The position numbers and the translations under genes were made by a program. This document shows, piece by piece, positions 22,003-64,000 of a stretch of DNA of 64,000 nucleotides. This DNA is from an uncultured virus (IMG/VR IMGVR_UViG_3300042445_002545) (taxonomy: Duplodnaviria; Heunggongvirae; Uroviricota; Caudoviricetes). Within the stretch, counting starts at the first letter, position 1. Each line of letters begins with the position of its first letter. The stretch is taken from IMG/VR virus record IMGVR_UViG_3300042445_002545; one strand, given 5' to 3'. The notes beneath the pieces were generated by a model. The model did not search any database and was not told the origin of the DNA. It was given only the letters and a program-made list of their open reading frames with translations.

Positions 22003-23046
22003 ATGATGAGAATTATGACATTTGAGAATATCAATAGATTAAGTAGTATGTACTACTTAAATAAAGCAATTAATGAATCTAAATTGCTTGTCGAATCATA
22101 CCCAAATGTTAATTCTTTATTATTAGAAGCTGATGATGATTCAGCATCTTATGAATGGGATTTTGTTAATAATAAATTCTATGATAGAGTAAATAATATT
22201 GAAACTGATATTAAAAAATCAGCATCATATGTTAGAACAGCTGAACAAGGTATAGATTTCATTAAGACATTAGTTGCTAAAGTTGCTGAATTACCAGATA
22301 AATTAAAATCTCGTGTTGTTAAGGTAGCAATAGCATCAATGGCATTAACAATGGGTTATAATCAATTGGTTGATGTTGATAGCAAAGTAGATGCTTTACC
22401 TAAAAACAATGTAGTAACGATGGTTGGTGACCTATTAGATAATGCTATAACTAAAAAAGAAGTACCACAAAAAGCCGAAAAACCTGTAGTAAAAGAAAAG
22501 TTTTCAAATAAAATAATTGATTTATTAAAAACTCATGAAGGTATTGGTGGTAAACCAGTACTTACCGCTTATAATATTGGTGACGGTGCATATACAATTG
22601 GATACGGTCACGCTGTATTTAAGGATATTTCTAGAGGTGATAATAGTAGTAGTTATGATTTCTTAGTATCATACGATGAGTATGAAAAAATGAAACAAAG
22701 AGGTGAAAAGGTAACCATAACACCAGAACAAGCTGAACAATTATTAAAAGATGATGTTAAAATAGCGGCTGAAGGTTTAGATAGATTGTTGAATGAATGG
22801 AAAGCTGATGGTGTTAACCCTAAAATAACTCAACCTATGTATGATGCTATGGTTTCAATGATTTATAATATGGGTGTTACCACATTTAGAAAAAGTGAAT
22901 TTATTCAATTAGTAAAACGTGGTAAATTTAAACAAGCTGCTGAAGCAATTAAAAGCACCAGCAGCCAAATGTTTAGAAAATATCCAGGATTAATAGTTAG
23001 AAGAGGTGATGAGTCTCAAACATTCACAGGTAATTACCCAACGTAA
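22003..23046 (+). CDS. GH24 lysozyme-domain protein with long N-terminal extension
   Basis: HEG...AYNIGDGAYTIGYGH, YDAMVSMIYNMG, GLIVRR. Confidence 0.85.
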   Translation: MMRIMTFENINRLSSMYYLNKAINESKLLVESYPNVNSLLLEADDDSASYEWDFVNNKFYDRVNNIETDIKKSASYVRTAEQGIDFIKTLVAKVAELPDKLKSRVVKVAIASMALTMGYNQLVDVDSKVDALPKNNVVTMVGDLLDNAITKKEVPQKAEKPVVKEKFSNKIIDLLKTHEGIGGKPVLTAYNIGDGAYTIGYGHAVFKDISRGDNSSSYDFLVSYDEYEKMKQRGEKVTITPEQAEQLLKDDVKIAAEGLDRLLNEWKADGVNPKITQPMYDAMVSMIYNMGVTTFRKSEFIQLVKRGKFKQAAEAIKSTSSQMFRKYPGLIVRRGDESQTFTGNYPT

Positions 23047-24575
23047 CCATCGTTACCCAATACACCACTAATTATTCTATGGAATATTAAATCAGGATAT
23101 CTTCTGATTGGGCTAGTTGTATGCATATAAAACTTAACACCTAAACCATAATGTCCTATATTTTTAGTTTGATAATTAGCTTTGGTCATGCATCTAACTA
23201 CTAAATTATTAATTATATTTTCTTCTGGTGTATCTTTAACTTCCTTAAGTAACCCATTTAGTTTATCCTTAATCTTATTATCATCAGATAAGTCTAATTT
23301 ATAACCAATCAATTCTATAAATGTTTTTAGTGATTCTAATCTAGTTGGGTCTGGTTCATCATGTGTTCTATGCAATGTCACAACACCTTTTTTTGTTACG
23401 TATTCACAAACTTGTCTGTTTGTTAAAACCATAAATTCCTCAATCAACCAATTTGATTCTTTTTGCTCAGTAAAATAAACGCCAAGTGGGTTTCCATTTA
23501 AATCTAAATCAAACTTAACTTCAGAACCTCTAAATTTTAATGAATTTTTATCACTTCTAATTTTTCTTATTTTACTTGCGTATCGATTCAAATCTAATAT
23601 AGCTCTTTTTAACTCTTTATTATAGATGTCACCACCTTCAATTACTTTTTGAACTTCAGTATATGTTAATCGGTAATTTGAATTGATTATACCACGACAA
23701 AACTTTTCTTTAATTACTTTACCATTTTGGTCAAGTGTGAATATAAATGAATAAACTAATTTATCAGTATGTGGGTTAAGTGAGCAAAGATTATTACTTA
23801 ATTTTTCTGGTAACATCGGTACAACTCTATCAACTAAATAAACCGATGTACCACGTTTATATGCCTCATCATCTATAGCTGTATTTGGTTTTACATAATA
23901 AGATACATCCGCAATATGAACAGCAACTTCAATATTACCATCAACCCATTGTACTGATAAGGCATCATCTAAATCTTTAGCTGTTTCACCATCAATAGTA
24001 AAAGTTAATATGTCACGCATATCTAATCTTTTAGCTATTTCTTTTTCTGAAATAACATCTGATATTAATTCAGACTCATTAATTACATTTTGTTTAAATT
24101 CATATGGTAGATTATATTCTTCCAATATACTATGAATTTCAACATCATTATTACCTGATTGACCTAATACTCTAATTACTTCACCATTAGGGTTTTTCTG
24201 ATTATCACCCCAAGTTGTCATTTTCACAACAACCTTTTCACCATTAGATGCACCCATTGTTTTATTTAATGGGATGAATATATCAATATTCATTCGTTTA
24301 TTATCTGGTATTAGAAAAGCATGCTTTAATGATATTTGCATAGTACCAACGAACTCAGTCTTGAATCGTTCTACAATCTCAATTACCTTACCTTCAAATT
24401 GACCATTATCAGTTTTGGTTAATTCAACTTTAACTATATCTAAATGCAATGCTTTGTTTACACTACCTTTATTGATATGTATACCCTTTTTTATATCTTG
24501 GTTTGTAACATAACCTGAACCGAATCCCGTAAGACCAATTTCACCAGTTACAATATCTCCTTTTTTAAACATCAA
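23034..24575 (-). CDS. rnr: RNase R N-terminal part (cold-shock domains plus RNB catalytic domain)
   Basis: TIDGETAKDLDDALS, HIADVS, RGTSVYL, PMLPEKLSNNLCSL, HTTSPIRRYPDL. Confidence 0.92.
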   Translation of the reverse strand: MMFKKGDIVTGEIGLTGFGSGYVTNQDIKKGIHINKGSVNKALHLDIVKVELTKTDNGQFEGKVIEIVERFKTEFVGTMQISLKHAFLIPDNKRMNIDIFIPLNKTMGASNGEKVVVKMTTWGDNQKNPNGEVIRVLGQSGNNDVEIHSILEEYNLPYEFKQNVINESELISDVISEKEIAKRLDMRDILTFTIDGETAKDLDDALSVQWVDGNIEVAVHIADVSYYVKPNTAIDDEAYKRGTSVYLVDRVVPMLPEKLSNNLCSLNPHTDKLVYSFIFTLDQNGKVIKEKFCRGIINSNYRLTYTEVQKVIEGGDIYNKELKRAILDLNRYASKIRKIRSDKNSLKFRGSEVKFDLDLNGNPLGVYFTEQKESNWLIEEFMVLTNRQVCEYVTKKGVVTLHRTHDEPDPTRLESLKTFIELIGYKLDLSDDNKIKDKLNGLLKEVKDTPEENIINNLVVRCMTKANYQTKNIGHYGLGVKFYMHTTSPIRRYPDLIFHRIISGVLGNDGYVG

Positions 24576-25765: not shown

Positions 25766-26380
25766 TTACTTTGTTGCATCCGTTATATGATGAACAATTA
25801 CTTTTATTTTTTGTTTACTGGCCCAGTCTTGGAATACTGGTAAATGGTCATCCCTATCTTCCCAGATTTCAATTTCTTCTAGGCTTGGGTTGTTATTAAC
25901 TAATTTATTCAATACTTCTATTTTAAAGTCAGCAGTATCTAAATTACCAGTTTTATAGATATAATCGTTAAACTTTAATCCCTTACTGTTTAATATATCA
26001 GTAACCAATTTACCAACACCAGCATGTCTACCAGTTAATAATAATACCATAGTATCTGGTCTACTAGATTGTTCTTTATAAGCTGATAATGTTTTTGGTA
26101 TTGGGTTATTATCAAAAATATTTCGTTTAAGACCAATTTCCTTTAAACCTGGTGCTAATTTAGTGTCTTTTTGAAAATAAATTCTACTATCTAGACTTTC
26201 AGGTCTACCCCACCAACCTTTAAATGGCCATTCAAATCCAAATTCTTTTTGCCACAAAGGTTTACCACTTTCTGGTGTATCAGTATCAATTAATGTTCCG
26301 TCAAAATCAAATATAGCTACTCGTTTGATAGTTTCATCAATAACACCTTCCCTTAATATCATTCTAATTTTATCTTTCAT
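25766..26380 (-). CDS. HAD-family phosphatase (RNA-repair HAD-like)
   Basis: FDFDGTL, LLTGR, K, IWEDR. Confidence 0.75.
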   Translation of the reverse strand: MKDKIRMILREGVIDETIKRVAIFDFDGTLIDTDTPESGKPLWQKEFGFEWPFKGWWGRPESLDSRIYFQKDTKLAPGLKEIGLKRNIFDNNPIPKTLSAYKEQSSRPDTMVLLLTGRHAGVGKLVTDILNSKGLKFNDYIYKTGNLDTADFKIEVLNKLVNNNPSLEEIEIWEDRDDHLPVFQDWASKQKIKVIVHHITDATK

Positions 26381-26403: not shown

Positions 26404-26973
26404 TTAATTTTCAAAAGGATACTCCTTTTTTGTTCCATCAGCCATTGAATAAACCACTTTAGTTACAACAACCTCAACTGGTTCAATGTCTTTAAATTTA
26501 TCAACATATTTATCAATTTTATCTGGTTTGATATAGGCAATCGTTGCGTGTGGGTGGTAATCTGGGTATGATGTGGTATGTGGGAATTTAGTAAACTTTT
26601 TATTTTCACTATGTAAATCTTCACTTTCCACGTCAAATTTTAATACACCAAATTTTGGATTATTAAATGATGATACTTTTTGCATCTTCAATTCTGGTTT
26701 TTTTAAACCATTAATAACCTTTTCAATATCTTCTAATGGTATATCACTATGTAATCCATATAACACTGTAACATGTGGTTCAGTTTCAAACCCATATCCT
26801 CTATCACCATCTTCACCAAGATATAAATCATCTTTATCAATCATTGATTCAAGATTATCCCAATCTTCTTTATTCACATCTAAAAATACCATAACACAAC
26901 CGTATTCAAACTTATCGCTGTGTTTACCTTCATTTAATTTTTTTCTAAATATACTTTTAATAAAATCTTTCAT
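26404..26973 (-). CDS. 2H phosphoesterase (LigT / Acb1-like)
   Basis: Two HxT motifs, PHVTV and PHATI. Confidence 0.8.
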   Translation of the reverse strand: MKDFIKSIFRKKLNEGKHSDKFEYGCVMVFLDVNKEDWDNLESMIDKDDLYLGEDGDRGYGFETEPHVTVLYGLHSDIPLEDIEKVINGLKKPELKMQKVSSFNNPKFGVLKFDVESEDLHSENKKFTKFPHTTSYPDYHPHATIAYIKPDKIDKYVDKFKDIEPVEVVVTKVVYSMADGTKKEYPFEN

Positions 26974-31495: not shown

Positions 31496-31924
31496 TTACG
31501 CAATAGAGTCAGTATTTGTTAGTAAGTCTTTAACCATTTGAGATAATACTTTACCATCATATTGACCAGCAAAATTTTGATTAAAATATGCCATAATTTT
31601 ACCCATATCTTTTGGTGAGTTATACCCTTGTAGACTTCTAAGTAATGAAAATTGAAAATACATATCATCAAAACTCATTTGTTTTGGCATATACTTTTCA
31701 AGTACAGCAACTTCTAATTGGTCACCACCTGTTTCAATAATACCATCAATTGATTTTTTAACTAATTTAACAATATCCGCATCTGATAACTCAATCTTAC
31801 CATTTGAAGATTGCTCACCCCTTTGGATTTCACCTTTTAATACTCTTAAGACTTTTAATGTAATTGTGTCTTTCGCTTTCATTGCAGTAACTAAATCTGC
31901 ACTGATTTGTGATTGTAATCCCAT
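31496..31924 (-). CDS. GatB/YqeY-domain protein
   Basis: AMKAKD...LRVLK, LEKYMPKQMS, KDMGKIM, DGKVLS. Confidence 0.85.
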   Translation of the reverse strand: MGLQSQISADLVTAMKAKDTITLKVLRVLKGEIQRGEQSSNGKIELSDADIVKLVKKSIDGIIETGGDQLEVAVLEKYMPKQMSFDDMYFQFSLLRSLQGYNSPKDMGKIMAYFNQNFAGQYDGKVLSQMVKDLLTNTDSIA

Positions 31925-32987: not shown

Positions 32988-33143
32988 ATGGAAGAAAAAG
33001 AAAAAAAAGTTTTAATTAATATCAGAATTGAAAAGGATGTAATTAAAAATTATAAAATACATTGTGATAAAAATGGGTATTCATTATCTAAAAGAATAAG
33101 AACACTAATAAATAAAGATTTAGAAAATGGCATACGTTTATAA
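32988..33143 (+). CDS. Small ribbon-helix-helix-like DNA-binding protein
   Basis: LINIRIEK beta strand followed by helices (YSLSKRIRTLI); directly upstream of the endonuclease. Confidence 0.55.
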   Translation: MEEKEKKVLINIRIEKDVIKNYKIHCDKNGYSLSKRIRTLINKDLENGIRL

Positions 33144-33900
33144 ACATATTAGATTAGACACAAATGACGTATTTTACATTGGTGTTGGTTCTGATAAATA
33201 CTATAGTAGAGCAAATTCTAAACATTCAAGAAATAAACATTGGTTAAATGTAGTTAATAAAGTTGGTTACAAAGTTGAAATAATTATAGATAATATCAGT
33301 TTTGATTTAGCTTTGAAGAAAGAAATTGAATTGATATCAGGGTATAAATTAATTTCAGAAGGTGGGTGTTTAGTAAATTATACTAAAGGTGGTCAAGGTC
33401 GATTAGGTTTCACACCATCACATGCAAAAAAAATATTTAGTCAAAATATTTTAACTGAAGAAATAATTGAATTTAATTCAATATTAGAAGCTTCTGAAAC
33501 TTTAAAAATCGCTAGAGCGAATATTTTAGCTGTTTTAAATAATAAAAATAGATATGCTAAAAATTTTATTTTTAATTATGATAAAACAAAATTAAACATT
33601 AATATAAGAAACACTAAAAATAATAATAAAGGTTGGTTACCCGAAACACCAATTTATATCACTAAAATAGATGAATACAAGCCACAATATTTTAAAAGTA
33701 TTTCAGAATGTATTAAAACAACGGTTTTTAATTTTTCTAGTAGTAAATTATCTAGAGTTAAAAATGGTTTACAAAAAAAACATAAAAACCATATAGTAGC
33801 AAATACATTACATGAGTTAAAAGAAAAATTTTTAAACATTACATCTAAAAGTAAAAACTCAAAGAACTATAAGAAAGAATACGCATCTCAAGGTAGGTAA
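33127..33900 (+). CDS. GIY-YIG-like homing endonuclease with NUMOD1-type repeats
   Basis: YVYKH...FYIGVG..R, E..LI, N.TKGG; FNSILEAS and FKSISEC repeats. Confidence 0.8.
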   Translation: MAYVYKHIRLDTNDVFYIGVGSDKYYSRANSKHSRNKHWLNVVNKVGYKVEIIIDNISFDLALKKEIELISGYKLISEGGCLVNYTKGGQGRLGFTPSHAKKIFSQNILTEEIIEFNSILEASETLKIARANILAVLNNKNRYAKNFIFNYDKTKLNINIRNTKNNNKGWLPETPIYITKIDEYKPQYFKSISECIKTTVFNFSSSKLSRVKNGLQKKHKNHIVANTLHELKEKFLNITSKSKNSKNYKKEYASQGR

Positions 33901-34149
33901 TTAACCGCCTTTATATCTTTCAATATTTACCCATATGTACTCCTTTGGACCATCTGGGGTAGATATTCTTTGACATACTTCAGCCCTTATTACATTAAAC
34001 ATTGGGTAATCAATTAAGAATCTATCAAAACATTCTCTAGGTATAATTCTATTTGAATGATAATCTACTAAACCATCATCACCAACAATAAATTGATGTG
34101 ACTGTGCACGATGTTGGGTGTGTAAAAATAATACTGTTAGATTTTCCAT
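33901..34149 (-). CDS. Hypothetical protein at the end of tRNA operon 1
   Basis: Start moved to ATG 34149 because the longer call overlaps tRNA-Lys. Confidence 0.6.
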   Translation of the reverse strand: MENLTVLFLHTQHRAQSHQFIVGDDGLVDYHSNRIIPRECFDRFLIDYPMFNVIRAEVCQRISTPDGPKEYIWVNIERYKGG

Positions 34150-34163
34150 TATAAATAATTTAG

Positions 34164-34236
34164 TGCACCTGGAGGGCCTCGAACCCTCTACCTTCCCGTT
34201 AAAAGCGGGAAGCCCGTCCACATGAGCTTCAGGCGC
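34164..34236 (-). tRNA. tRNA-Lys(TTT)
   Basis: Cloverleaf; anticodon arm TCCCG-CTTTTAA-CGGGA. Confidence 0.9.
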
Positions 34237-34271
34237 ATAACATAGCCATTTATTGTGTCTATGTGTCTATG

Positions 34272-34344
34272 TGCGCCCGACAGGGTTCGAACCTGTGACT
34301 CGTAAATTAAAAGTTTACTACTCTACCAACTGAGTTACGAGCGC
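34272..34344 (-). tRNA. tRNA-Lys(TTT)
   Basis: Cloverleaf; GTAAA-CTTTTAA-TTTAC. Confidence 0.92.
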
Positions 34345-34387
34345 ATATTTCTTCTTATGACACTCGTAACTTTTACAGCCGAGTGCC

Positions 34388-34432
34388 CTAACGTTTCTTC
34401 TTCTTTTTTGAAATGATTGTTAAGTTTTTCAT
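34388..34432 (-). CDS. Poly-Lys leader peptide MKNLTIISKKKKKR
   Basis: Five consecutive Lys codons; ORF ends 43 nt upstream of tRNA-Lys and is followed by alternative pairings. Confidence 0.75.
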   Translation of the reverse strand: MKNLTIISKKKKKR

Positions 34433-34466
34433 AATGTTTAATTTTTATTGTTTTATATTATTTTAG

Positions 34467-34617
34467 TGGGGCTGGGGGGAATCGAACCTAGGTTACCCTA
34501 TCTACTTCGCTTCAATGATTTGTTTGTCGACCAACGCCTCATATTCACTTTTTGACCTTAGCTGCTATAGCACCGCCTTATCGTGGCGGGTCGGTTCACC
34601 TCACCGCAAGCAACCCC
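34467..34617 (-). ncRNA. 151-nt tRNA-like RNA
   Basis: GGGGTTG/CAGCCCC-A terminal stem, TTCGATT loop, internal GC hairpins, no anticodon arm. Confidence 0.5.
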
Positions 34618-34622
34618 ATGTG

Positions 34623-34694
34623 AGCAGACGGCCAGAATCGAACTGGCATCCTCGATTTGGTAAACCGATGCACTAACCGTTGTGCTACGCCCGC
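34623..34694 (-). tRNA. tRNA-Gly(ACC), unusual A34
   Basis: TCGGT-TTACCAA-ATCGA; acceptor GCGGGCG/CGTCTGC, U73. Confidence 0.85.
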
Positions 34695-34741
34695 ATTCTA
34701 TTTTTTACCTCTATCATAAGAGCTTAAAATATAACAGCCCG

Positions 34742-34818
34742 TGGAGCGGGTGGTGGGGCTCAAACCCACAACCCCCAGCTTGGAAGGCTAGTGCTCTAAT
34801 CAATTGAGCTACACCCGC
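34742..34818 (-). tRNA. tRNA-Gly(TCC), CCA encoded
   Basis: CTAGC-CTTCCAA-GCTGG. Confidence 0.92.
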
Positions 34819-35047
34819 AATTTGTGCCTCTCTCTGCACCCGTCATACCCCTTTGTATTCTGTTAATCTCCTAAAGCCTCAGCCCTTATAAGGATTTTCC
34901 TAACGGTAAAGCGGTATCAAAAACCAGTATTCATTTAATAACGTCAGTAGGACTTAACTGGAACCTCTCATTTATATCCAATCATCAACGGGTAATTAAC
35001 CCATAAGGCGTAATCCATACATTGCTGCACGTCTATCCTACCTATTG

Positions 35048-35119
35048 AGCACTCTCCCAGAATCGAACTGAGTTATCTGATTTACAAGACCAGTGCATCA
35101 CCGAGTATGCTTAGAGTGC
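35048..35119 (-). tRNA. tRNA-Thr(TGT)
   Basis: CTGGT-CTTGTAA-ATCAG. Confidence 0.9.
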
Positions 35120-35187
35120 AAAATGATTTTTATTTCCCCCTTGAAAAGCCAAGTACAAGTCAAAAATCTAAAATTTACCCTAGCGAG

Positions 35188-35268
35188 TCGGAGCGGAGGG
35201 ATTCGAACCCCCATGCCGTTAGGACTTGATTTACAGTCAAGCGAGCCAGCCAATTGCTCAACACTCCG
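35188..35268 (-). tRNA. tRNA-Tyr(GTA)
   Basis: CTTGA-CTGTAAA-TCAAG, long variable region. Confidence 0.9.
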
Positions 35269-35335
35269 AAATACAGGATGGTACACTGTTCCAAATTAAA
35301 AGTTTGATAGTATATATTGCTGTAACCATCCTTTG

Positions 35336-35409
35336 TTATCCGAGAGGGCTTCGAACCCCCAGATTCTCCCTTCAAAGGGGAGTGACTTTGCCAGTTTGTC
35401 TATCGGACA
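35336..35409 (-). tRNA. tRNA-Gln(TTG)
   Basis: CTCCC-CTTTGAA-GGGAG. Confidence 0.9.
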
Positions 35410-35458
35410 ATAACTTCCCATAACTTATTTTTTTAATGGCTTATGGAAACCATATCAG

Positions 35459-35532
35459 TCGAGATTGGAGGAATTTAACCTACCATTCAACACCCCCCAT
35501 GAGTGTGGTCTTAAACAATAGACGAAATCTCG
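35459..35532 (-). tRNA. Degenerate tRNA-Pro-like gene
   Basis: Acceptor CGAGATT/AATCTCG-A; loop CATGGGG lacks U33; T-loop TTAAATT. Confidence 0.5.
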
Positions 35533-35535
35533 TTG

Positions 35536-35609
35536 TCGAATAGGCTGGATTCGAACCAGCGTGCTCGGCATTCCAAATGCCGCTAGATAAACCGCTCCTA
35601 TACTACTCG
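35536..35609 (-). tRNA. tRNA-Pro(TGG)
   Basis: CGGCA-TTTGGAA-TGCCG. Confidence 0.9.
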
Positions 35610-35711
35610 TTAAATTACATTCCTACTAGAGTTTATGTATAACTTAATTACCCAACATGTCAAAGAACATATAAACTTTATTTTTTGTCCCGTTTATAAA
35701 ATTATGGACAT

Positions 35712-35747
35712 AAAAAAACCCGAACTGCAATTAGCGATTCGGGTTTT
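35712..35747 (-). terminator. Attenuator terminator of tRNA operon 1
   Basis: AAAACCCGAATCGC-TAATT-GCAGTTCGGGTTTTTTT on minus strand. Confidence 0.85.
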
Positions 35748-35770
35748 AAATATCTTGTTAAGTTTAATGC

Positions 35771-35875
35771 TTAAATAAGCTTATCACTTTCAACTTGATA
35801 TGACACACCCGTCACACTAGGCTTCCCGCCTTGCGTATACTGTTTCGGTTGATATGTCGTACCTGTTGTTTTCAT
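35771..35875 (-). CDS. Leader peptide 1 MKTTGTTYQPKQYTQGGKPSVTGVSYQVESDKLI
   Basis: Lies between promoter and terminator; residues 2-19 are only K/T/G/Y/Q/P. Confidence 0.85.
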   Translation of the reverse strand: MKTTGTTYQPKQYTQGGKPSVTGVSYQVESDKLI

Positions 35876-35907
35876 TTTATTTTTTTTAATTATTTTTTAC
35901 TGTTTCT

Positions 35908-35950
35908 ATTAAATATATGCAAATATACTAAAAGTTTATAATATATGCAA
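35908..35950 (-). promoter_or_regulatory. tRNA operon 1 promoter (30-bp repeat, copy 1)
   Basis: TTG-N20-TATATTTG; ATTAAATATATGCAAATATACTAAAAGTTT is identical at 48300 and 50546. Confidence 0.85.
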
Positions 35951-35974
35951 CTTTTTTTAAATTATTTTTTTTAG

Positions 35975-36045
35975 AAGCGGATTCAGGACTCGAACCTGGC
36001 TATGGGGTTATGAGCCCCTTGTGCTACCAATTACACCAAACCGCA
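35975..36045 (-). tRNA. tRNA-Met(CAT), initiator-like
   Basis: GGGG-CTCATAA-CCCC anticodon arm, 1:72 mismatch. Confidence 0.8.
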
Positions 36046-36050
36046 ATATG

Positions 36051-36123
36051 TTCACCATAAGGGACTTCAACCCTCATCTCCACTCCCAAACGGAATGGTG
36101 CACTTACTTTGTGCTAATGGTAA
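36051..36123 (-). tRNA. Atypical tRNA-like gene, anticodon unresolved
   Basis: Acceptor, D and T arms present; anticodon arm CCATTCC-GTTTG-GGAGTGG abnormal. Confidence 0.5.
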
Positions 36124-36679
36124 ATAATGTTAGCCAGAATCATCTTTTTTTCCATAAACGAATTTTTGAATTTGCTGAACTGATTCTTATGCTAATTTTT
36201 TGAGACTGTCCAGATTTAATACTTACCTTATTCCCCTTAAATATGCGGTGATTAAATAGTTTATTCACCGCAAGGTTGTTGTGGCAGTGTAACCCTGTCT
36301 CGTAATATCTTTATCCCAAAATGATTTTTTGTGTTTTTCATCCCAGCGGATTAACCCGTTTTACGTCTTCGGCTTTGCTTTGGCGAGAGTCTACTGTTAT
36401 TCGACTGCATCCTACTTGCACCTGTTGGGGTGGTCTGACGTTTAACCTTTTTTTTATATGGAAGTCTTACCATTGTTATTAATTCCGTAGTTCCAATGAT
36501 ACAAGTACCATCTTTCCTTACCAATTAACATCTCATGTAGTTTGTCTGTTTGGTTGCAGAACTCATTTTTTTGGATAAATGTTTTATAATAAATTAAAGA
36601 ACGTTTTCTTATTTGTTTTACAAAGATAGTAACTATTTTTTGATTTGTCAACTACTTTATGAAAATATTTTAATATTTT

Positions 36680-45322: not shown

Positions 45323-46851
45323 TTAATAGGTTGATTGGAATTTACTTTCTTCTAAAAAAGAACCTACTGTTTCCTTACTTTGCATTATTAAATCTTTAGC
45401 TATCTTTTCAGATATTACTTTATAGATAACATTTAAAATAGCATCCTGATGTGAACCATCTTCAAAATACTCTTTAAACTTTGTTTTAATACCAAATAAA
45501 TCAATAGTATCTTTCACATGAAACTCTTTACCATTTAATACAAACTTACAATGCATAATTATAGTATTTTCGAAGTGAGTTCCATAAGAAGTATTTATAA
45601 AAAACCCTTCAGCTGTTATAATGTTATCATTTAATTTAAAATGATGCATTATATTTTCAATTGCTTTTTCTTGAAACTCATTTAATAATTCTACACTTTT
45701 ATCTGTTGGTGCTTTATGCTCATGTACAGTTTTTTCGTAAGGTACTAAACGTTCTGTATAAGTGTGTGTATTTTTACTCATATTTTAATTTTTATCTACT
45801 TCTTTAGCTCTTTTAGTACCTAATGATATCGGTAATAAGGCCCAACCAAATACCCATGCTACTAAAAACCCTTGTAGATTAATTCCAGCTTTTTGATACA
45901 TGTCCATACCTATGACATATAAAGTACTGAAAACCCAGTATAAAAATAATAAATTATCCATAATTTTTAATTGTTAATAAGAACAAACATTCTTTTTTTA
46001 TTTGATGGTTTTTTAAATAAATCAGCAAATCTATCATTGAAACTATCTAATTCAGAATAATCTATTACTGCAACTGAATGATTAACGTAATCATCTTCAT
46101 CTACTACATCTAAATCTTTAATTGGTGTTAAATAGCAATCATAATCGGCTATTTCAGTAAAAATAAAACAATCACCTTTATGCTGATATTTCCATTCACC
46201 AATTTGACTATTCAAACCCTTACCTATTGGTATTGCAGCAGTATCGAAATCAATATCATGTTCACTTAAATCTGGTAATACTAATAACATATCACATTCA
46301 AGCATTGGTTTATGGGAATAAGACCCACCTTTAAATTCAACTAACTCAATATCAAATTTAGAAAGTCTAACCCTGACGGCCATTAGGTCATCAGGGTTTA
46401 CCTTATTAGATTTGGCTAAATATATCTTAGTTTTCATTTTCAGATACGAACCATTCGTTTTTAATTTCATTGGCAACTTCCAATTCAATAGCTTTCAACT
46501 TAATTTCCATCTTAGTGTCGTGCAATTCATTCATCCATCTTGATGCATCAAAATCTTTGCTACCTGGACGTAAACTGTATGTGTTGTCTGGTGCCAAATC
46601 AGTTAAACTAGTTAACTTATTGTTTAATTTTGAAAGCTCACGTTTCAATGTATTGATAAATGTATCAACTTCCAAGATTGTGTCTTCAGCTAATTGTTTA
46701 GCTCTTGTTTCTTTAATTGTATTATCAGAAGCTGATAACATGTTTACAAATTTACTCATAGTTTATTATTTTAATTATTAATTAATCAGGATGCAAATAT
46801 AATATCTTTTTTTTAATTACGCAACTTTTTTTAAACTTTTTTTGATTTTAG

Positions 46852-46924
46852 TTGAGATAAGGGGTTTCGAACCCCGTGTTTCCACCCGTCTAGGTGGCGT
46901 TCTAACCAATTAAACTATATCCCA
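46852..46924 (-). tRNA. Atypical tRNA with a 6-nt anticodon loop and G3.U70
   Basis: Good acceptor, D and T arms; CCACC-TAGACG-GGTGG. Confidence 0.55.
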
Positions 46925-50650: not shown

Positions 50651-50962
50651 ATGGATAAGGTATATTTACTAGCAAATGAAGAATGGACACAATTTAAAAT
50701 TGGTGTCACAAAAAACGTAACTAATAAACGAAAAAGTGATTTACAAACTGGTAATGGTTCTGAAATAATTATTGTTAATACTTTTGAAACTAGATTTTCA
50801 AACAAAGTTGAGAAGTGGTTACATAGAAAATATAATTCAAAGCGATTAGTTGGTGAATGGTTTGCGCTTAATGACAATGATATTACTAATTTCATATCTG
50901 ATTGTCAAAAAGCGCATGATACATTCCAATGTTTAATCGATAGTGAGAATCCTTTTATTTAA
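50651..50962 (+). CDS. T5orf172/MUG113-type GIY-YIG domain protein
   Basis: VYLL..FKIGVT..R..LQTGN..EKWLHRKY..GEWF. Confidence 0.85.
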   Translation: MDKVYLLANEEWTQFKIGVTKNVTNKRKSDLQTGNGSEIIIVNTFETRFSNKVEKWLHRKYNSKRLVGEWFALNDNDITNFISDCQKAHDTFQCLIDSENPFI

Positions 50963-52173
50963 GAATCGAATCTAACTTCTAAAGTTGTATAATCTTGTTT
51001 TATATTATAGAATTCTTTTCTAATATAAATTAATAAAGCATTTACCAAACCTTGGTCAACCTTTTTAGGTAAATCTGAATTATCAAATATACTATCCATT
51101 TCTTCAATAGCCTGGTCAGCCATTGCTATTAAATTTTCCAAATCAACTTCACCACGTCTAATTGCAAGTAACTCTTGAGCATCTTCTCTACGAACATTAA
51201 TACCTTCACCTCTACCAATCTCTTGGGCCATTCTAATAAGTCGGATACAATGCATCATATTCTTACCATCGATGCGTTGACCATGTTCTTGCGTTTCAAC
51301 ATAACGAGTATCATTACGGTTTTCCAACCATTCTTGGTATTCTCTATAATCTTTGCAGTGCACAGTGTAACCGTCTTTGTTGTAGATAATATTACAAATA
51401 GGTGTTTCACCTTTTGGTATGCTTGAAAGACGTAGTTGGTTGGATTCAGCCGCATTTGTACCTTCACCAGACTTGACTAAACCTTTATAACCAAATCCTA
51501 ATGGCAAATTGTTCTTAGTTCTATTTTGTTTTGCAGACTCCCTTACATTTTCAGGAATTGATTCACTAAAACACAAAGTTGCTAACATATCAAAGTAAAC
51601 AGCATAAACGTCTCTTGCATTTGGAACATTTACAACCCCAATAAATTTTTCTTCGTAGTTGTAATCCTCGTTCCAAACTTTCCATGGAATAGATTTTTCA
51701 CCTTCAATAACATAACAGAAATCCAATACATCTTTACGAGTCACTTTGTCTTTCTCCCAGTTTTGTTTCTTATCAAGACCTTTCGCCTTCTTGATTTGTT
51801 GTCTAGCGTAGCCACCGAATGAATCCTTACAAATCTTTGTAATAAACTCATCCTTATGCGCAATTATAACATCAAACAATGGATGTTTAGATACAATGCA
51901 ATCTTCAGGGCTATTAAGTAATTCTAAAACTGTTGGGTTATTGCTACCCATTAGTTCTAGGAAACGTCTAATTTCCCACCCAACGTAATCTTTATTTACG
52001 TTTATTTGTTCAACATACCCAGTACCTAAGATATAATCTTGTGGTAGTATATATACAAATTTTTTGTCTATATCAGATGTTGGTGTCTGCGTTCCATACG
52101 CTTGTGACCCAACTATTGTTTCAAATAGGATTAACCCATTTTCAACTAAAAATTCATGCGTTATTTGTTTCAT
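50959..52173 (-). CDS. Pol-beta-superfamily nucleotidyltransferase (YcgL/RlaP-like)
   Basis: GSQAYGTQTPTSDID, NNPTVLELL, KNMMHCIRL, LLAIRRGE. Confidence 0.85.
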   Translation of the reverse strand: MKQITHEFLVENGLILFETIVGSQAYGTQTPTSDIDKKFVYILPQDYILGTGYVEQINVNKDYVGWEIRRFLELMGSNNPTVLELLNSPEDCIVSKHPLFDVIIAHKDEFITKICKDSFGGYARQQIKKAKGLDKKQNWEKDKVTRKDVLDFCYVIEGEKSIPWKVWNEDYNYEEKFIGVVNVPNARDVYAVYFDMLATLCFSESIPENVRESAKQNRTKNNLPLGFGYKGLVKSGEGTNAAESNQLRLSSIPKGETPICNIIYNKDGYTVHCKDYREYQEWLENRNDTRYVETQEHGQRIDGKNMMHCIRLIRMAQEIGRGEGINVRREDAQELLAIRRGEVDLENLIAMADQAIEEMDSIFDNSDLPKKVDQGLVNALLIYIRKEFYNIKQDYTTLEVRFDS

Positions 52174-57649: not shown

Positions 57650-58708
57650 TCATAATCCTACTAATTCATTTAATTTTATTAAAAACATTTCTCTCGTTTT
57701 AGTTGAAATGTATTTATTTATTTCTTTGGGTTCAAGATTATTCTCAATCATGGTATCCATTTCTTCTTTGATAACATCATTTACAACCCATCTAATTACG
57801 TCACCCATTTTCTTAACATCTAATGGTTCTTCATTAGGGAATACGTTTTCGATTGCTTGGTTAACACGACTTTCGGTAACCGAATATTCTACAAACTCTT
57901 TAATTGAGTTTAATTTTTCAACATCAACAGTTGCTAAGGTTTTAACTTTAGAGGAGCTATGTAATTCACCCTTCACCTTGAACCTATGTACAACATTTTG
58001 AAATTCACAAGACCAAACGATACCTTCACCAATCCCTGAGAAGCCAAATGCTTTCGCTACAGGACATTCTTCCTCAACTGCAATAGTCAACTCGGATAAT
58101 TGATTTTGAATCAACTGAGGCATGTTAAAATCGATATCAATTGAATACGTTTCATAATCATCGATATTGTAAATTTTAACCTCTGGTGCTCTCAAGTATG
58201 TTGAATCAACCCAATAAGCTGGATTAGCTTTTAATTCTTCTTCAGTTTCAGTATGTGGTGTAATTTTAACACCAAATATGAAGAATGATTTAGGTAAGTT
58301 GGAAATACCAACACCTTTTTGAATATTACCACCAGCCCATTCACCATAAATACTAATAGTATTATTGTTTCTATTAATATTTTCTTTTTCAGCAACATGT
58401 AACATTAAACCATAAAAAATATCCTTATTTGATTCCACAAAGAATGCAAATCCAGCGTTATCTTTTTCTGGTGTGATGATATTCTCACGAGATTGTGCCC
58501 ACAAATCATCTTGACTATTATAAGAAACACCAGCATTAGTACCATGTAATTTTATAGTACCTTTAAAGGTTAATACTGGTTTAGGTAAATTTGGGTCATA
58601 AATCGCCTCACCATTTTCATCTAAACCAACAAAATTGTATCGTCTATTAACATTAGAAACAACAGTTCTAAATTGTTCAATAGACGGAAATTTAATCATT
58701 TTTTTCAT
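57650..58708 (-). CDS. RNA ligase, Rnl2-like
   Basis: KLHGTN, QSR, YGEW, FFIFG, EGIVW, FKVK. Confidence 0.85.
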   Translation of the reverse strand: MKKMIKFPSIEQFRTVVSNVNRRYNFVGLDENGEAIYDPNLPKPVLTFKGTIKLHGTNAGVSYNSQDDLWAQSRENIITPEKDNAGFAFFVESNKDIFYGLMLHVAEKENINRNNNTISIYGEWAGGNIQKGVGISNLPKSFFIFGVKITPHTETEEELKANPAYWVDSTYLRAPEVKIYNIDDYETYSIDIDFNMPQLIQNQLSELTIAVEEECPVAKAFGFSGIGEGIVWSCEFQNVVHRFKVKGELHSSSKVKTLATVDVEKLNSIKEFVEYSVTESRVNQAIENVFPNEEPLDVKKMGDVIRWVVNDVIKEEMDTMIENNLEPKEINKYISTKTREMFLIKLNELVGL

Positions 58709-63139: not shown

Positions 63140-64000
63140 TTATAACATTTTATATAATGACTTATCGTCATAGTTTAACATATATTCATTTACTGATGGT
63201 ATTTTACCATCAACTAATCCAAAGCACATTCCTGTGAAAGGTTTTAAATCATATTTATCACATAACTCAAATACCTTAGCAGCATATCTCTTTTTTTCAG
63301 ATGCTATTATACTATTAGGTTTATGCAACTTTAATTCTTCCCACAAAAACTTTAATCTATTAACCAAATCATCATAACCTTCTTTTAATCTCAATAATTC
63401 ATCTTTTCTATCTGGGAAAGTTGAAATGAATTCTTCAATTTCATTGGTTTTAACAATCACCATAATATTGTGTTCAGCAGTTTTACCTTTTAAGTGGTGA
63501 ACGGCCAGGTAGGCTGGATTTTTGATTTTAACTCTATTGTCATCAGCATCTCTAACCACATAGCCTTCTTCAGACCATGGCATGTTTTCAAATGTCTTGA
63601 TTAATGTACCAGCATTCTTAGCATTTAAATCATAAGATTTAACCAATGGTATTCCTAATGATACCGAAACCATAAATAAATCATTGTATGGTATTTCTTT
63701 TAATGTTAATCTATTTCTAACAGCCAATAATTTAGATGATGATTCACCATGTGGTGTTACAACAATATTATATGGTGTTGTTAATTCAAAAACATATACA
63801 TGGTCCTTATCTAATAGACAAGTGTTAAATGAATACTTTGAAATAACAGTGTCCCAAAATAATTCATTAAATGTTGTCCCGTATTTGTTATTAACTTCCC
63901 CTTCACCTTCAGCAGTACCCGTAGTTGCCGCAAACCAAATTTCTTTATGCCAATCCCAATAAACTTGAATCATTGTACCATCTTCTTTATTAAGAACATG
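63140..64000 (-). CDS. RNA ligase, T4 Rnl1-like (5' end outside the window)
   Basis: Frame is open to the window edge and includes motif I KEDGT; FELT, EGYVV, VKIKNPAY. Confidence 0.85.
   Translation of the reverse strand, partial: HVLNKEDGTMIQVYWDWHKEIWFAATTGTAEGEGEVNNKYGTTFNELFWDTVISKYSFNTCLLDKDHVYVFELTTPYNIVVTPHGESSSKLLAVRNRLTLKEIPYNDLFMVSVSLGIPLVKSYDLNAKNAGTLIKTFENMPWSEEGYVVRDADDNRVKIKNPAYLAVHHLKGKTAEHNIMVIVKTNEIEEFISTFPDRKDELLRLKEGYDDLVNRLKFLWEELKLHKPNSIIASEKKRYAAKVFELCDKYDLKPFTGMCFGLVDGKIPSVNEYMLNYDDKSLYKML

Follow-up and report, generated by a model that had tools for sequence, protein, structure and literature searches.

A very short, lysine-rich open reading frame immediately in front of a pair of phage tRNA-Lys genes raises the question of what such a frame might be doing there, and whether the RNA that separates it from the first tRNA could tie the decoding of lysine codons to the making of the tRNA that reads them. 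The locus lies in a window of 64,000 nucleotides (the whole stretch of DNA that was analysed), an A+T-rich piece of a large lake-water phage with approximately 29% G+C and an A-rich coding strand. Nearly all genes of the window are on the minus strand, and ARAGORN finds 19 tRNA genes in it. The leader frame, MKNLTIISKKKKKR followed by a TAG stop, occupies 34432-34388 on the minus strand, with the ATG at 34432-34430, 14 codons in all and the TAG at 34390-34388, which is where the preliminary description had placed a lysine-rich frame just before two tRNA-Lys genes. The gene behind the leader, tRNA-Lys(UUU) number 1 (34344-34271, minus), is called by ARAGORN, scores 68.6 bits against the Rfam tRNA family and does not encode its CCA. 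Directly downstream, with no protein gene in between, is tRNA-Lys(UUU) number 2 (34236-34163, minus; called by ARAGORN, 46.2 bits). This neighbour has no leader of its own, which counts against reading the leader as a switch for tRNA-Lys.

The surroundings of the two genes have oddities of their own. On the opposite strand a homing-endonuclease-like gene with an I-HmuI NUMOD-like domain (33127-33900, plus) abuts the tRNA block. tRNA-Lys number 2 has A in place of U at position 8, and a 19-nt string from its D arm recurs exactly in 45 tRNA-like loci among 47 IMG/VR hits (L017-L063), the other two hits falling in coding sequence by chance. Loci that share the string differ freely in their acceptor and anticodon stems. 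Directly upstream of the leader lies a tRNA-like element of approximately 150 nt (34466-34615, minus), whose acceptor-like stem is 7 bp long (GGGGUUG/CAGCCCC) and whose T arm reads GGUUCGAUUCC. It is not called by ARAGORN even with introns allowed, has no match in Rfam and has a fold z-score of only -0.96. Among contigs from RNA libraries of relatives, one of run X15 covers 34476-34619 and one of run X18 covers 34476-34570, the latter at a depth of 119 and with adapter letters at either end. The element may be a stable small RNA. Two further tRNA calls in the window are unusual, a tRNA-Gly with the anticodon ACC (34622-34694, minus) and a 'tRNA-???' with a two-nucleotide anticodon (46851-46924, minus).

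Six of the 14 codons of the leader frame encode lysine (three AAA and three AAG), and the mean lysine content of the phage proteins is 8.9%. Such a composition is rare in small frames of the window: on the same strand only one of the 265 ATG frames of 10-16 codons holds five or more lysines, and that one is the leader. Likewise, a small frame rich in cognate codons is found upstream of only one of the 19 tRNA genes. The region in front of the leader is A-rich, as are the upstream regions of the phage genes, and its start context is typical for the phage. A Shine-Dalgarno-like word precedes one of the 55 long frames of the window, as against 10.8% of random windows, and this rarity suggests a host with Shine-Dalgarno-independent initiation, presumably a Bacteroidota-like one. 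No sigma-70-type promoter was found near the leader on the minus strand.

Between the leader stop and the tRNA, the RNA can pair in two mutually exclusive ways through a shared strand. Segment A (34387-34377, minus) starts with the first base after the stop codon; its first part, GGCACUCG (34387-34380), forms eight pairs with CGAGUGUC (34366-34359), and the GCU that follows in A extends the helix. Segment B (34371-34359, minus) is the shared strand. Besides its pairing to A it can form 12 contiguous pairs, two of them G.U, between AGUUACGAGUGU (34371-34360) and GCGCUCGUAACU (34344-34333). The latter is segment C, positions 1-12 of tRNA-Lys number 1, spanning the 5' strand of the acceptor stem, positions 8-9 and the first D-stem bases. 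The B:C helix closes a 15-nt loop, most of which is an A-rich spacer (34358-34345, minus) that ranges from 5 to 18 nt among the versions of the element described below. In the folded tRNA the partner of C is segment D, the 3' acceptor strand CGGGCGC (34279-34273, minus). Both the hairpin at 34359-34387 directly behind the leader stop and the 12-nt anti-tRNA complementarity with its G.U pairs had been proposed earlier from the letters of this DNA, and both are borne out. The same holds for the lack of a U-tailed terminator: no terminator-like site was found in 33900-36300, where 1.8 are expected from shuffles, and a T run after either helix is absent in all 20 versions. A cmscan of 33800-36600 against Rfam, run with E up to 1, found nothing in 34345-34465.

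The same layout was found in 71 loci, on 29 IMG/VR contigs and three metagenome contigs, which together represent 20 distinct versions. One of the 29 IMG/VR contigs is nearly identical to the window, and eight of the leader-bearing contigs span 205-362 kb. The IMG/VR scans were anchored on the tRNA 5' end, on the D arm of tRNA-Lys number 2, on the hairpin and on the start, end and middle of the frame. With a 24-mer of the tRNA 5' end, 14 loci were obtained, and the leader was present only in near-identical relatives; the nearest record, G001, shows 100% identity across 621 bases and hence brings no comparative information. The metagenome scan returned at least 118 loci, of which at least three are real (L128, L177 and L184); 38 of its loci have shorter flanks. 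A scan of genome contigs with the hairpin pattern gave a tRNA-Lys downstream in none of 120 among the matches listed, which does not prove that bacteria lack the element. By blastn against the annotated phage genomes of INPHARED, 45 records match through tRNA genes only and none covers the leader. Contigs from four metatranscriptome runs cover part of tRNA-Lys number 1, tRNA-Lys number 2 and the tRNA-like element; they stop short of the leader and, being contigs, cannot show RNA ends. Identity among the relatives starts at ATAATATAAAAC, upstream of the frame, and the sequences that flank the leader module differ. In one relative (L004) there is no adjoining tRNA-Lys number 2.

Failure of the complementarity to be conserved had been named beforehand as an outcome that would refute the proposed control of tRNA-Lys. 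When the test was run on the 20 versions the complementarity proved to be conserved, with changes on both sides of the pairs. For A:B, 96.8% of the cells are paired (shifted-register controls 32-51%) and five of the eight pairs have changes on both sides. For B:C the corresponding values are 89.5% (controls 29-45%) and six of 12 pairs, in 14 cells, while the acceptor stem, as a positive control, is 100% paired (controls 32-61%) with both-side changes in five of its seven pairs. Unguided, RNAalifold recovers A:B, grown by three to 11 pairs with a 2-nt bulge, together with the cloverleaf. Three versions illustrate the compensation. The tRNA of L248 starts with UCCCUCGAAGC and has A at position 8, where U is usual; the matching U is present in its strand B, GUUUUGAGGGG, giving 11 contiguous B:C pairs, and arm A is changed to CCCUCAA. 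In L246, where the tRNA starts with GGCUUCAAAGC, the hairpin arms are CCUUCAA and UUGAAGG, and in L128 a C at tRNA position 5 is met by a G in strand B. The match is imperfect elsewhere. Twelve of the 20 versions lack the pair to tRNA position 3, B:C is reduced to approximately eight pairs (-5.7 kcal/mol) in L246 and L249, and a C at tRNA position 5 is unmatched in B in L099. The compensatory changes are confined to a few lineages, chiefly L248/L246/L249 and L128; independent events are few, and the rows are related to one another. Several versions were found by patterns that fix arm A or B, and there the conservation of the arms is partly forced; only the frame-anchored scans put no constraint on the hairpin or the tRNA, and the hairpin scan put none on the frame or the tRNA. 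A pairing of A with D that appeared in the single-sequence fold was discarded, as it is 77.1% paired across the versions and 150 of 500 shuffles reach as high a value.

Could such pairing and such a frame arise by coincidence? At 29% G+C and with an A-rich coding strand, both a run of complementarity and a poly-lysine frame might be thought to appear by chance. As controls we took 378 distinct leaderless tRNAs with 140 nt of upstream region from the fetched phage loci. The longest run of complementarity between the upstream 60 nt and the first 14 nt of the tRNA reaches 11 in four of the 378, and a run of 12, as in the window, occurs in none. The duplex energies of the controls average -7.9 kcal/mol (sd 2.7), compared with -17.7 kcal/mol for the window and a mean of -13.4 kcal/mol for 22 leader-bearing items. 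Invasion by the leader of at least seven of the first 14 tRNA nucleotides is predicted for 18 of these 22 items and for 21 of 360 ordinary tRNAs. Folded as a single sequence, 34440-34271 has a z-score of -3.0, none of 200 shuffles matches its stability, and the anti-tRNA helix is part of its minimum-energy structure. With these controls, the scarcity of small frames with five or more lysines and the conservation of the element in 32 contigs, an origin of both features by chance can practically be dismissed.

The element is also attached to one kind of tRNA. The preliminary description had noted the leader beside tRNA-Lys, and this adjacency recurs whatever the sequence of the tRNA: the gene after the leader is a tRNA-Lys in all 20 versions, 19 with the anticodon UUU and one with CUU. 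Every real hit has frame, hairpin and tRNA-Lys together, including those from scans anchored on the frame or the hairpin alone. The tRNA-Lys genes concerned have at least eight different acceptor strands, and one has a long variable arm and another lacks the usual T-loop sequence. Among tRNAs that share the L248 D arm there are three real cases of the leader, all before tRNA-Lys(UUU), and none among 30 tRNA-Thr; the scan with this D arm covered 61 loci and gave no new version. That the leader follows tRNA-Lys across such differing tRNAs ties the element to lysine identity and not to one tRNA sequence. The association does not run the other way, since 57 of the 83 distinct tRNA-Lys items in the fetched loci are without a leader, which counts against reading the element as a switch. 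The version with the anticodon CUU, L254:270-430 (minus), has the same leader, MKTIINIKRKKKD followed by a stop, and likewise counts against such a reading. A crude small-frame filter flagged two of 26 tRNA-Thr(UGU), and both were rejected by eye, having neither a post-stop hairpin nor an anti-5'-end strand. A third 'tRNA-Lys' called by ARAGORN in the window (36123-36050) has no such leader and no Rfam support.

By comparing the frames themselves we could separate what is kept from what drifts. There are 15 distinct homologous frames, of 11, 13, 14 or 15 codons, all starting with ATG and all open, with 4-7 lysines per 11-15 codons across the 20 versions. Their lengths differ only in multiples of three. 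The +1 frame is interrupted by one to three stops in all 15 and the +2 frame by stops in 12, and composition shuffles of the leader frame are open in 34% of cases on average. The stop codon lies 0-3 nt from A in all 20 versions. Counted from the stop, lysine is found at codons -2 and -4 in all 20 versions and at -6 in 17, and codon 2 is lysine in 19; at these fixed lysine codons both AAA and AAG are used, and the wobble base varies between A and G only. The remaining residues drift, with 121 non-synonymous against 37 synonymous codon differences between pairs of frames. Classical leader peptides have only their regulatory codons fixed, and the phage leader likewise fixes only its lysine codons. 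A sensing leader would predict just this, with frame, start, stop position and lysine codons kept and the peptide free to change, and a functional peptide would not; the lack of conservation outside lysine argues in particular against a specific arrest peptide. Arginine codons are conserved as well, the frame ending Lys-Arg-stop in 14 of the 20 versions. This counts against the switch in so far as the switch leaves it unexplained.

The same data bear on two simpler accounts of the locus. In one the frame is a real gene for a small basic peptide, A:B is a hairpin that stabilises the 3' end of its message, the tRNA does no more than supply the RNase P cut that ends the message, and B:C is a by-product. 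An open, ATG-started frame with an A-rich upstream region like that of real phage genes would fit a gene, as would the retained richness in lysine and arginine, and the complementarity could follow from the likeness of A to C (GCACUCG and GCGCUCG). The drift of all residues other than lysine speaks against a peptide with a function. Mimicry of the acceptor does not predict five extra pairs to tRNA positions 8-12 that show compensatory change; these are paired in 93 of 97 cells, and a B:C helix that reaches so far goes beyond what a hairpin copying the acceptor stem explains. The exclusive link to tRNA-Lys over at least eight unrelated tRNA-Lys sequences is left unexplained too, and we think a peptide gene quite unlikely. 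In the other account nothing is translated: A:B is the acceptor minihelix that remained when a tRNA-Lys copy was deleted, or else a decoy whose mimicry serves to bind a tRNA-recognising enzyme; an A-rich spacer precedes it, and the frame is fortuitous. A deleted copy would leave an A like C and a B like D, both of which are seen, tRNA genes are shuffled and duplicated among the relatives, and composition shuffles leave the frame open in 34% of cases. Yet all 15 frames are open and keep their ATG, with lengths that change by threes and a stop codon 0-3 nt from A; the third base of the fixed lysine codons is confined to A or G; and within the L248/L246 clade, whose sequences are quite different, hairpin and tRNA co-vary. 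A relic or decoy is accordingly improbable in our estimation.

We consider instead, with slightly better than even confidence, that the element is an attenuator-like, translation-coupled switch in which the place of the '3:4' helix is taken by the tRNA's own acceptor stem. Ribosome speed on the lysine codons probably decides whether tRNA-Lys can fold and mature. Taking the frame to be translated, we infer the direction of the switch and RNase P maturation as its output. With the stop codon in its A site, a ribosome extends approximately 9 nt past the stop and so over A, as known from the toeprinting literature. When Lys-tRNA is plentiful, the ribosome would reach the stop and cover A while the polymerase makes B and C. 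With A covered, B would capture C and so withdraw the 5' strand of the acceptor stem together with the first part of the D stem, and tRNA-Lys could not form its acceptor stem. RNase P requires an acceptor stem, so the B:C form should mature poorly; such a precursor would be a poor substrate for the enzyme or might be degraded. When Lys-tRNA is scarce, which could follow attack by an anticodon nuclease, the ribosome would lag on the upstream lysine codons and A:B would form first, locking B away and leaving tRNA-Lys to fold and mature. The net outcome would be feedback control of the phage tRNA-Lys supply. A ribosome waiting four or six codons before the stop would leave A free. One at codon -2 would cover only the first bases of A and blur the two states, which would count against the switch.

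The predicted energies are compatible with two states close to balance. When the stretch running from the stop codon to the tRNA 3' end is folded either with the acceptor stem forced to form or with B:C forced to form, the two best folds lie 0.5-7.6 kcal/mol apart in all 20 versions. Unconstrained, the predicted fold has A:B together with the acceptor stem in 11 versions and B:C in nine. When the 10 nt after the stop are masked, as they would be under a terminating ribosome, B:C is predicted in 18 of the 20; masking does not switch L099 or L248. The geometry of hairpin and anti-tRNA strand suggested in the preliminary description is thus consistent with these folding models, in which masking shifts the prediction to B:C, and with lysines at -2, -4 and mostly -6. 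The nine versions with B:C as the unconstrained fold sit badly with a tRNA that 'folds by default', energies here excluding the tertiary terms of the tRNA.

These nine versions also point to another possibility, that the same conserved switch has a different output or polarity, with B:C as the productive form (a double-stranded processing site), or with protection of the 5' end or stability of the precursor as what is controlled. In the window B:C is the more stable single helix (-14.6 kcal/mol against -10.9 kcal/mol for A:B), a starved ribosome at the lysine of codon -2 would presumably cover part of A, and the phage has its own enzyme of the RNase II/R family (an RNB-domain nuclease by PHROG/Pfam, 23034-24575, minus). 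A helix of 12 bp is, on the other hand, short for RNase III, and what B:C sequesters, tRNA positions 1-12, is incompatible with a cloverleaf that is 100% conserved. It would seem unlikely, therefore, that B:C is the productive form or that the output is of this other kind.

Within the preferred reading, in which a lagging ribosome lets tRNA-Lys fold, the leader might serve more specifically as an attack sensor: a nuclease of the PrrC or PARIS type would destroy tRNA-Lys, the ribosome would stall, and a nuclease-resistant phage tRNA-Lys would then fold. We offer this tentatively and hold it to be rather doubtful. Lysine decoding is plausibly a battleground for the phage, and its T4-like RNA-repair genes are context for that view and not evidence. 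By PHROG/Pfam these comprise a polynucleotide kinase-like gene (25766-26380), three RNA ligase-like genes (26404-26973, 57650-58708 and 63140-63973) and an RlaP-type nucleotidyltransferase (50959-52173); a gene matching a 'tRNA amidotransferase' PHROG (31496-31924) is found as well, all on the minus strand. The window also holds cargo that is unusual for a phage (38889-40477, 54049-55476, 19262-20149 and 28915-29502, all minus), namely an ABC-transporter ATPase/permease pair, a PAS-domain histidine-kinase-like protein and two sigma-factor-like genes.

In the usual view, bacterial and phage tRNA levels depend on transcription and decay and not on switches that sense the ribosome. A switch of the kind favoured here would extend the logic of attenuation from terminators to the folding of a non-coding product, would couple the decoding of a codon, directly and by feedback, to how much of its tRNA is supplied, and would bring a further level of regulation to phage tRNAs, which are seen at present as countermeasures to tRNA-cutting defences. 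Were the attack sensor true as well, a tRNA precursor with its own ribosome-read switch would be a counter-defence triggered by the defence itself, and this would be the first tRNA with maturation set by translation of its own codons. The element is approximately 90 nt long and modular, and is directly testable in synthetic constructs.

Leader-peptide transcription attenuators are known for amino-acid operons and for pheST in E. coli (trpL, hisL, pheL, thrL, leuL and pheM). Like a trpL-type attenuator, the phage element has a short frame enriched in codons of the amino acid presumed to be sensed, and where the position of the ribosome picks 1:2/3:4 or 2:3 in the former, A:B and B:C share strand B in the latter. 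Unlike it, the phage element has no terminator hairpin and no U run, sits in phage tRNA clusters and matches no Rfam leader family. The downstream gene is in all 20 versions a tRNA-Lys and not a set of biosynthesis or aminoacyl-tRNA synthetase genes, so that what is presumably regulated is the tRNA by which the regulatory codons themselves are read, and the '3:4' helix would be the acceptor stem of this tRNA. In translational attenuation of the ermC/cat type, a drug- and peptide-dependent pause unmasks a ribosome-binding site. There, as proposed here, a ribosome pausing in a leader frame refolds the downstream RNA without a terminator and the output is access to what lies downstream; the element masked in the phage RNA is instead tRNA positions 1-12, and the presumed signal is the supply of Lys-tRNA. 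T-boxes use no leader frame; they bind uncharged tRNA directly, and at their end lies either a terminator or a ribosome-binding site that is sequestered. The phage element resembles a T-box riboswitch as a cis-acting RNA that would report on one tRNA species and control the same amino-acid system, and the Rfam cmscan of 33800-36600 gave no T-box match.

Polynucleotide kinase (Pnk) and RNA ligase 1 (Rnl1) of phage T4 repair tRNA-Lys cut by PrrC. The locus shares with counter-defence phage tRNA-Lys genes a phage-encoded tRNA-Lys(UUU), unusual tRNA sequences and RNA-repair genes in the same genome. According to their abstracts, T5 tRNA-Lys neutralises PARIS, which cuts tRNA-Lys (PMC11464382), and phage tRNAs evade anticodon nucleases (PMC10264068); neither abstract mentions a leader frame or alternative pairing in front of the tRNA, such as the present locus has. 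Searches at the level of titles and abstracts likewise turned up no publication in which a leader frame or an alternative pairing precedes a tRNA gene. The principle of leader-peptide attenuation is described in the abstract of PMC1183508. This sensing principle is classical; to have the fold of a tRNA as its target, as proposed here, is not.
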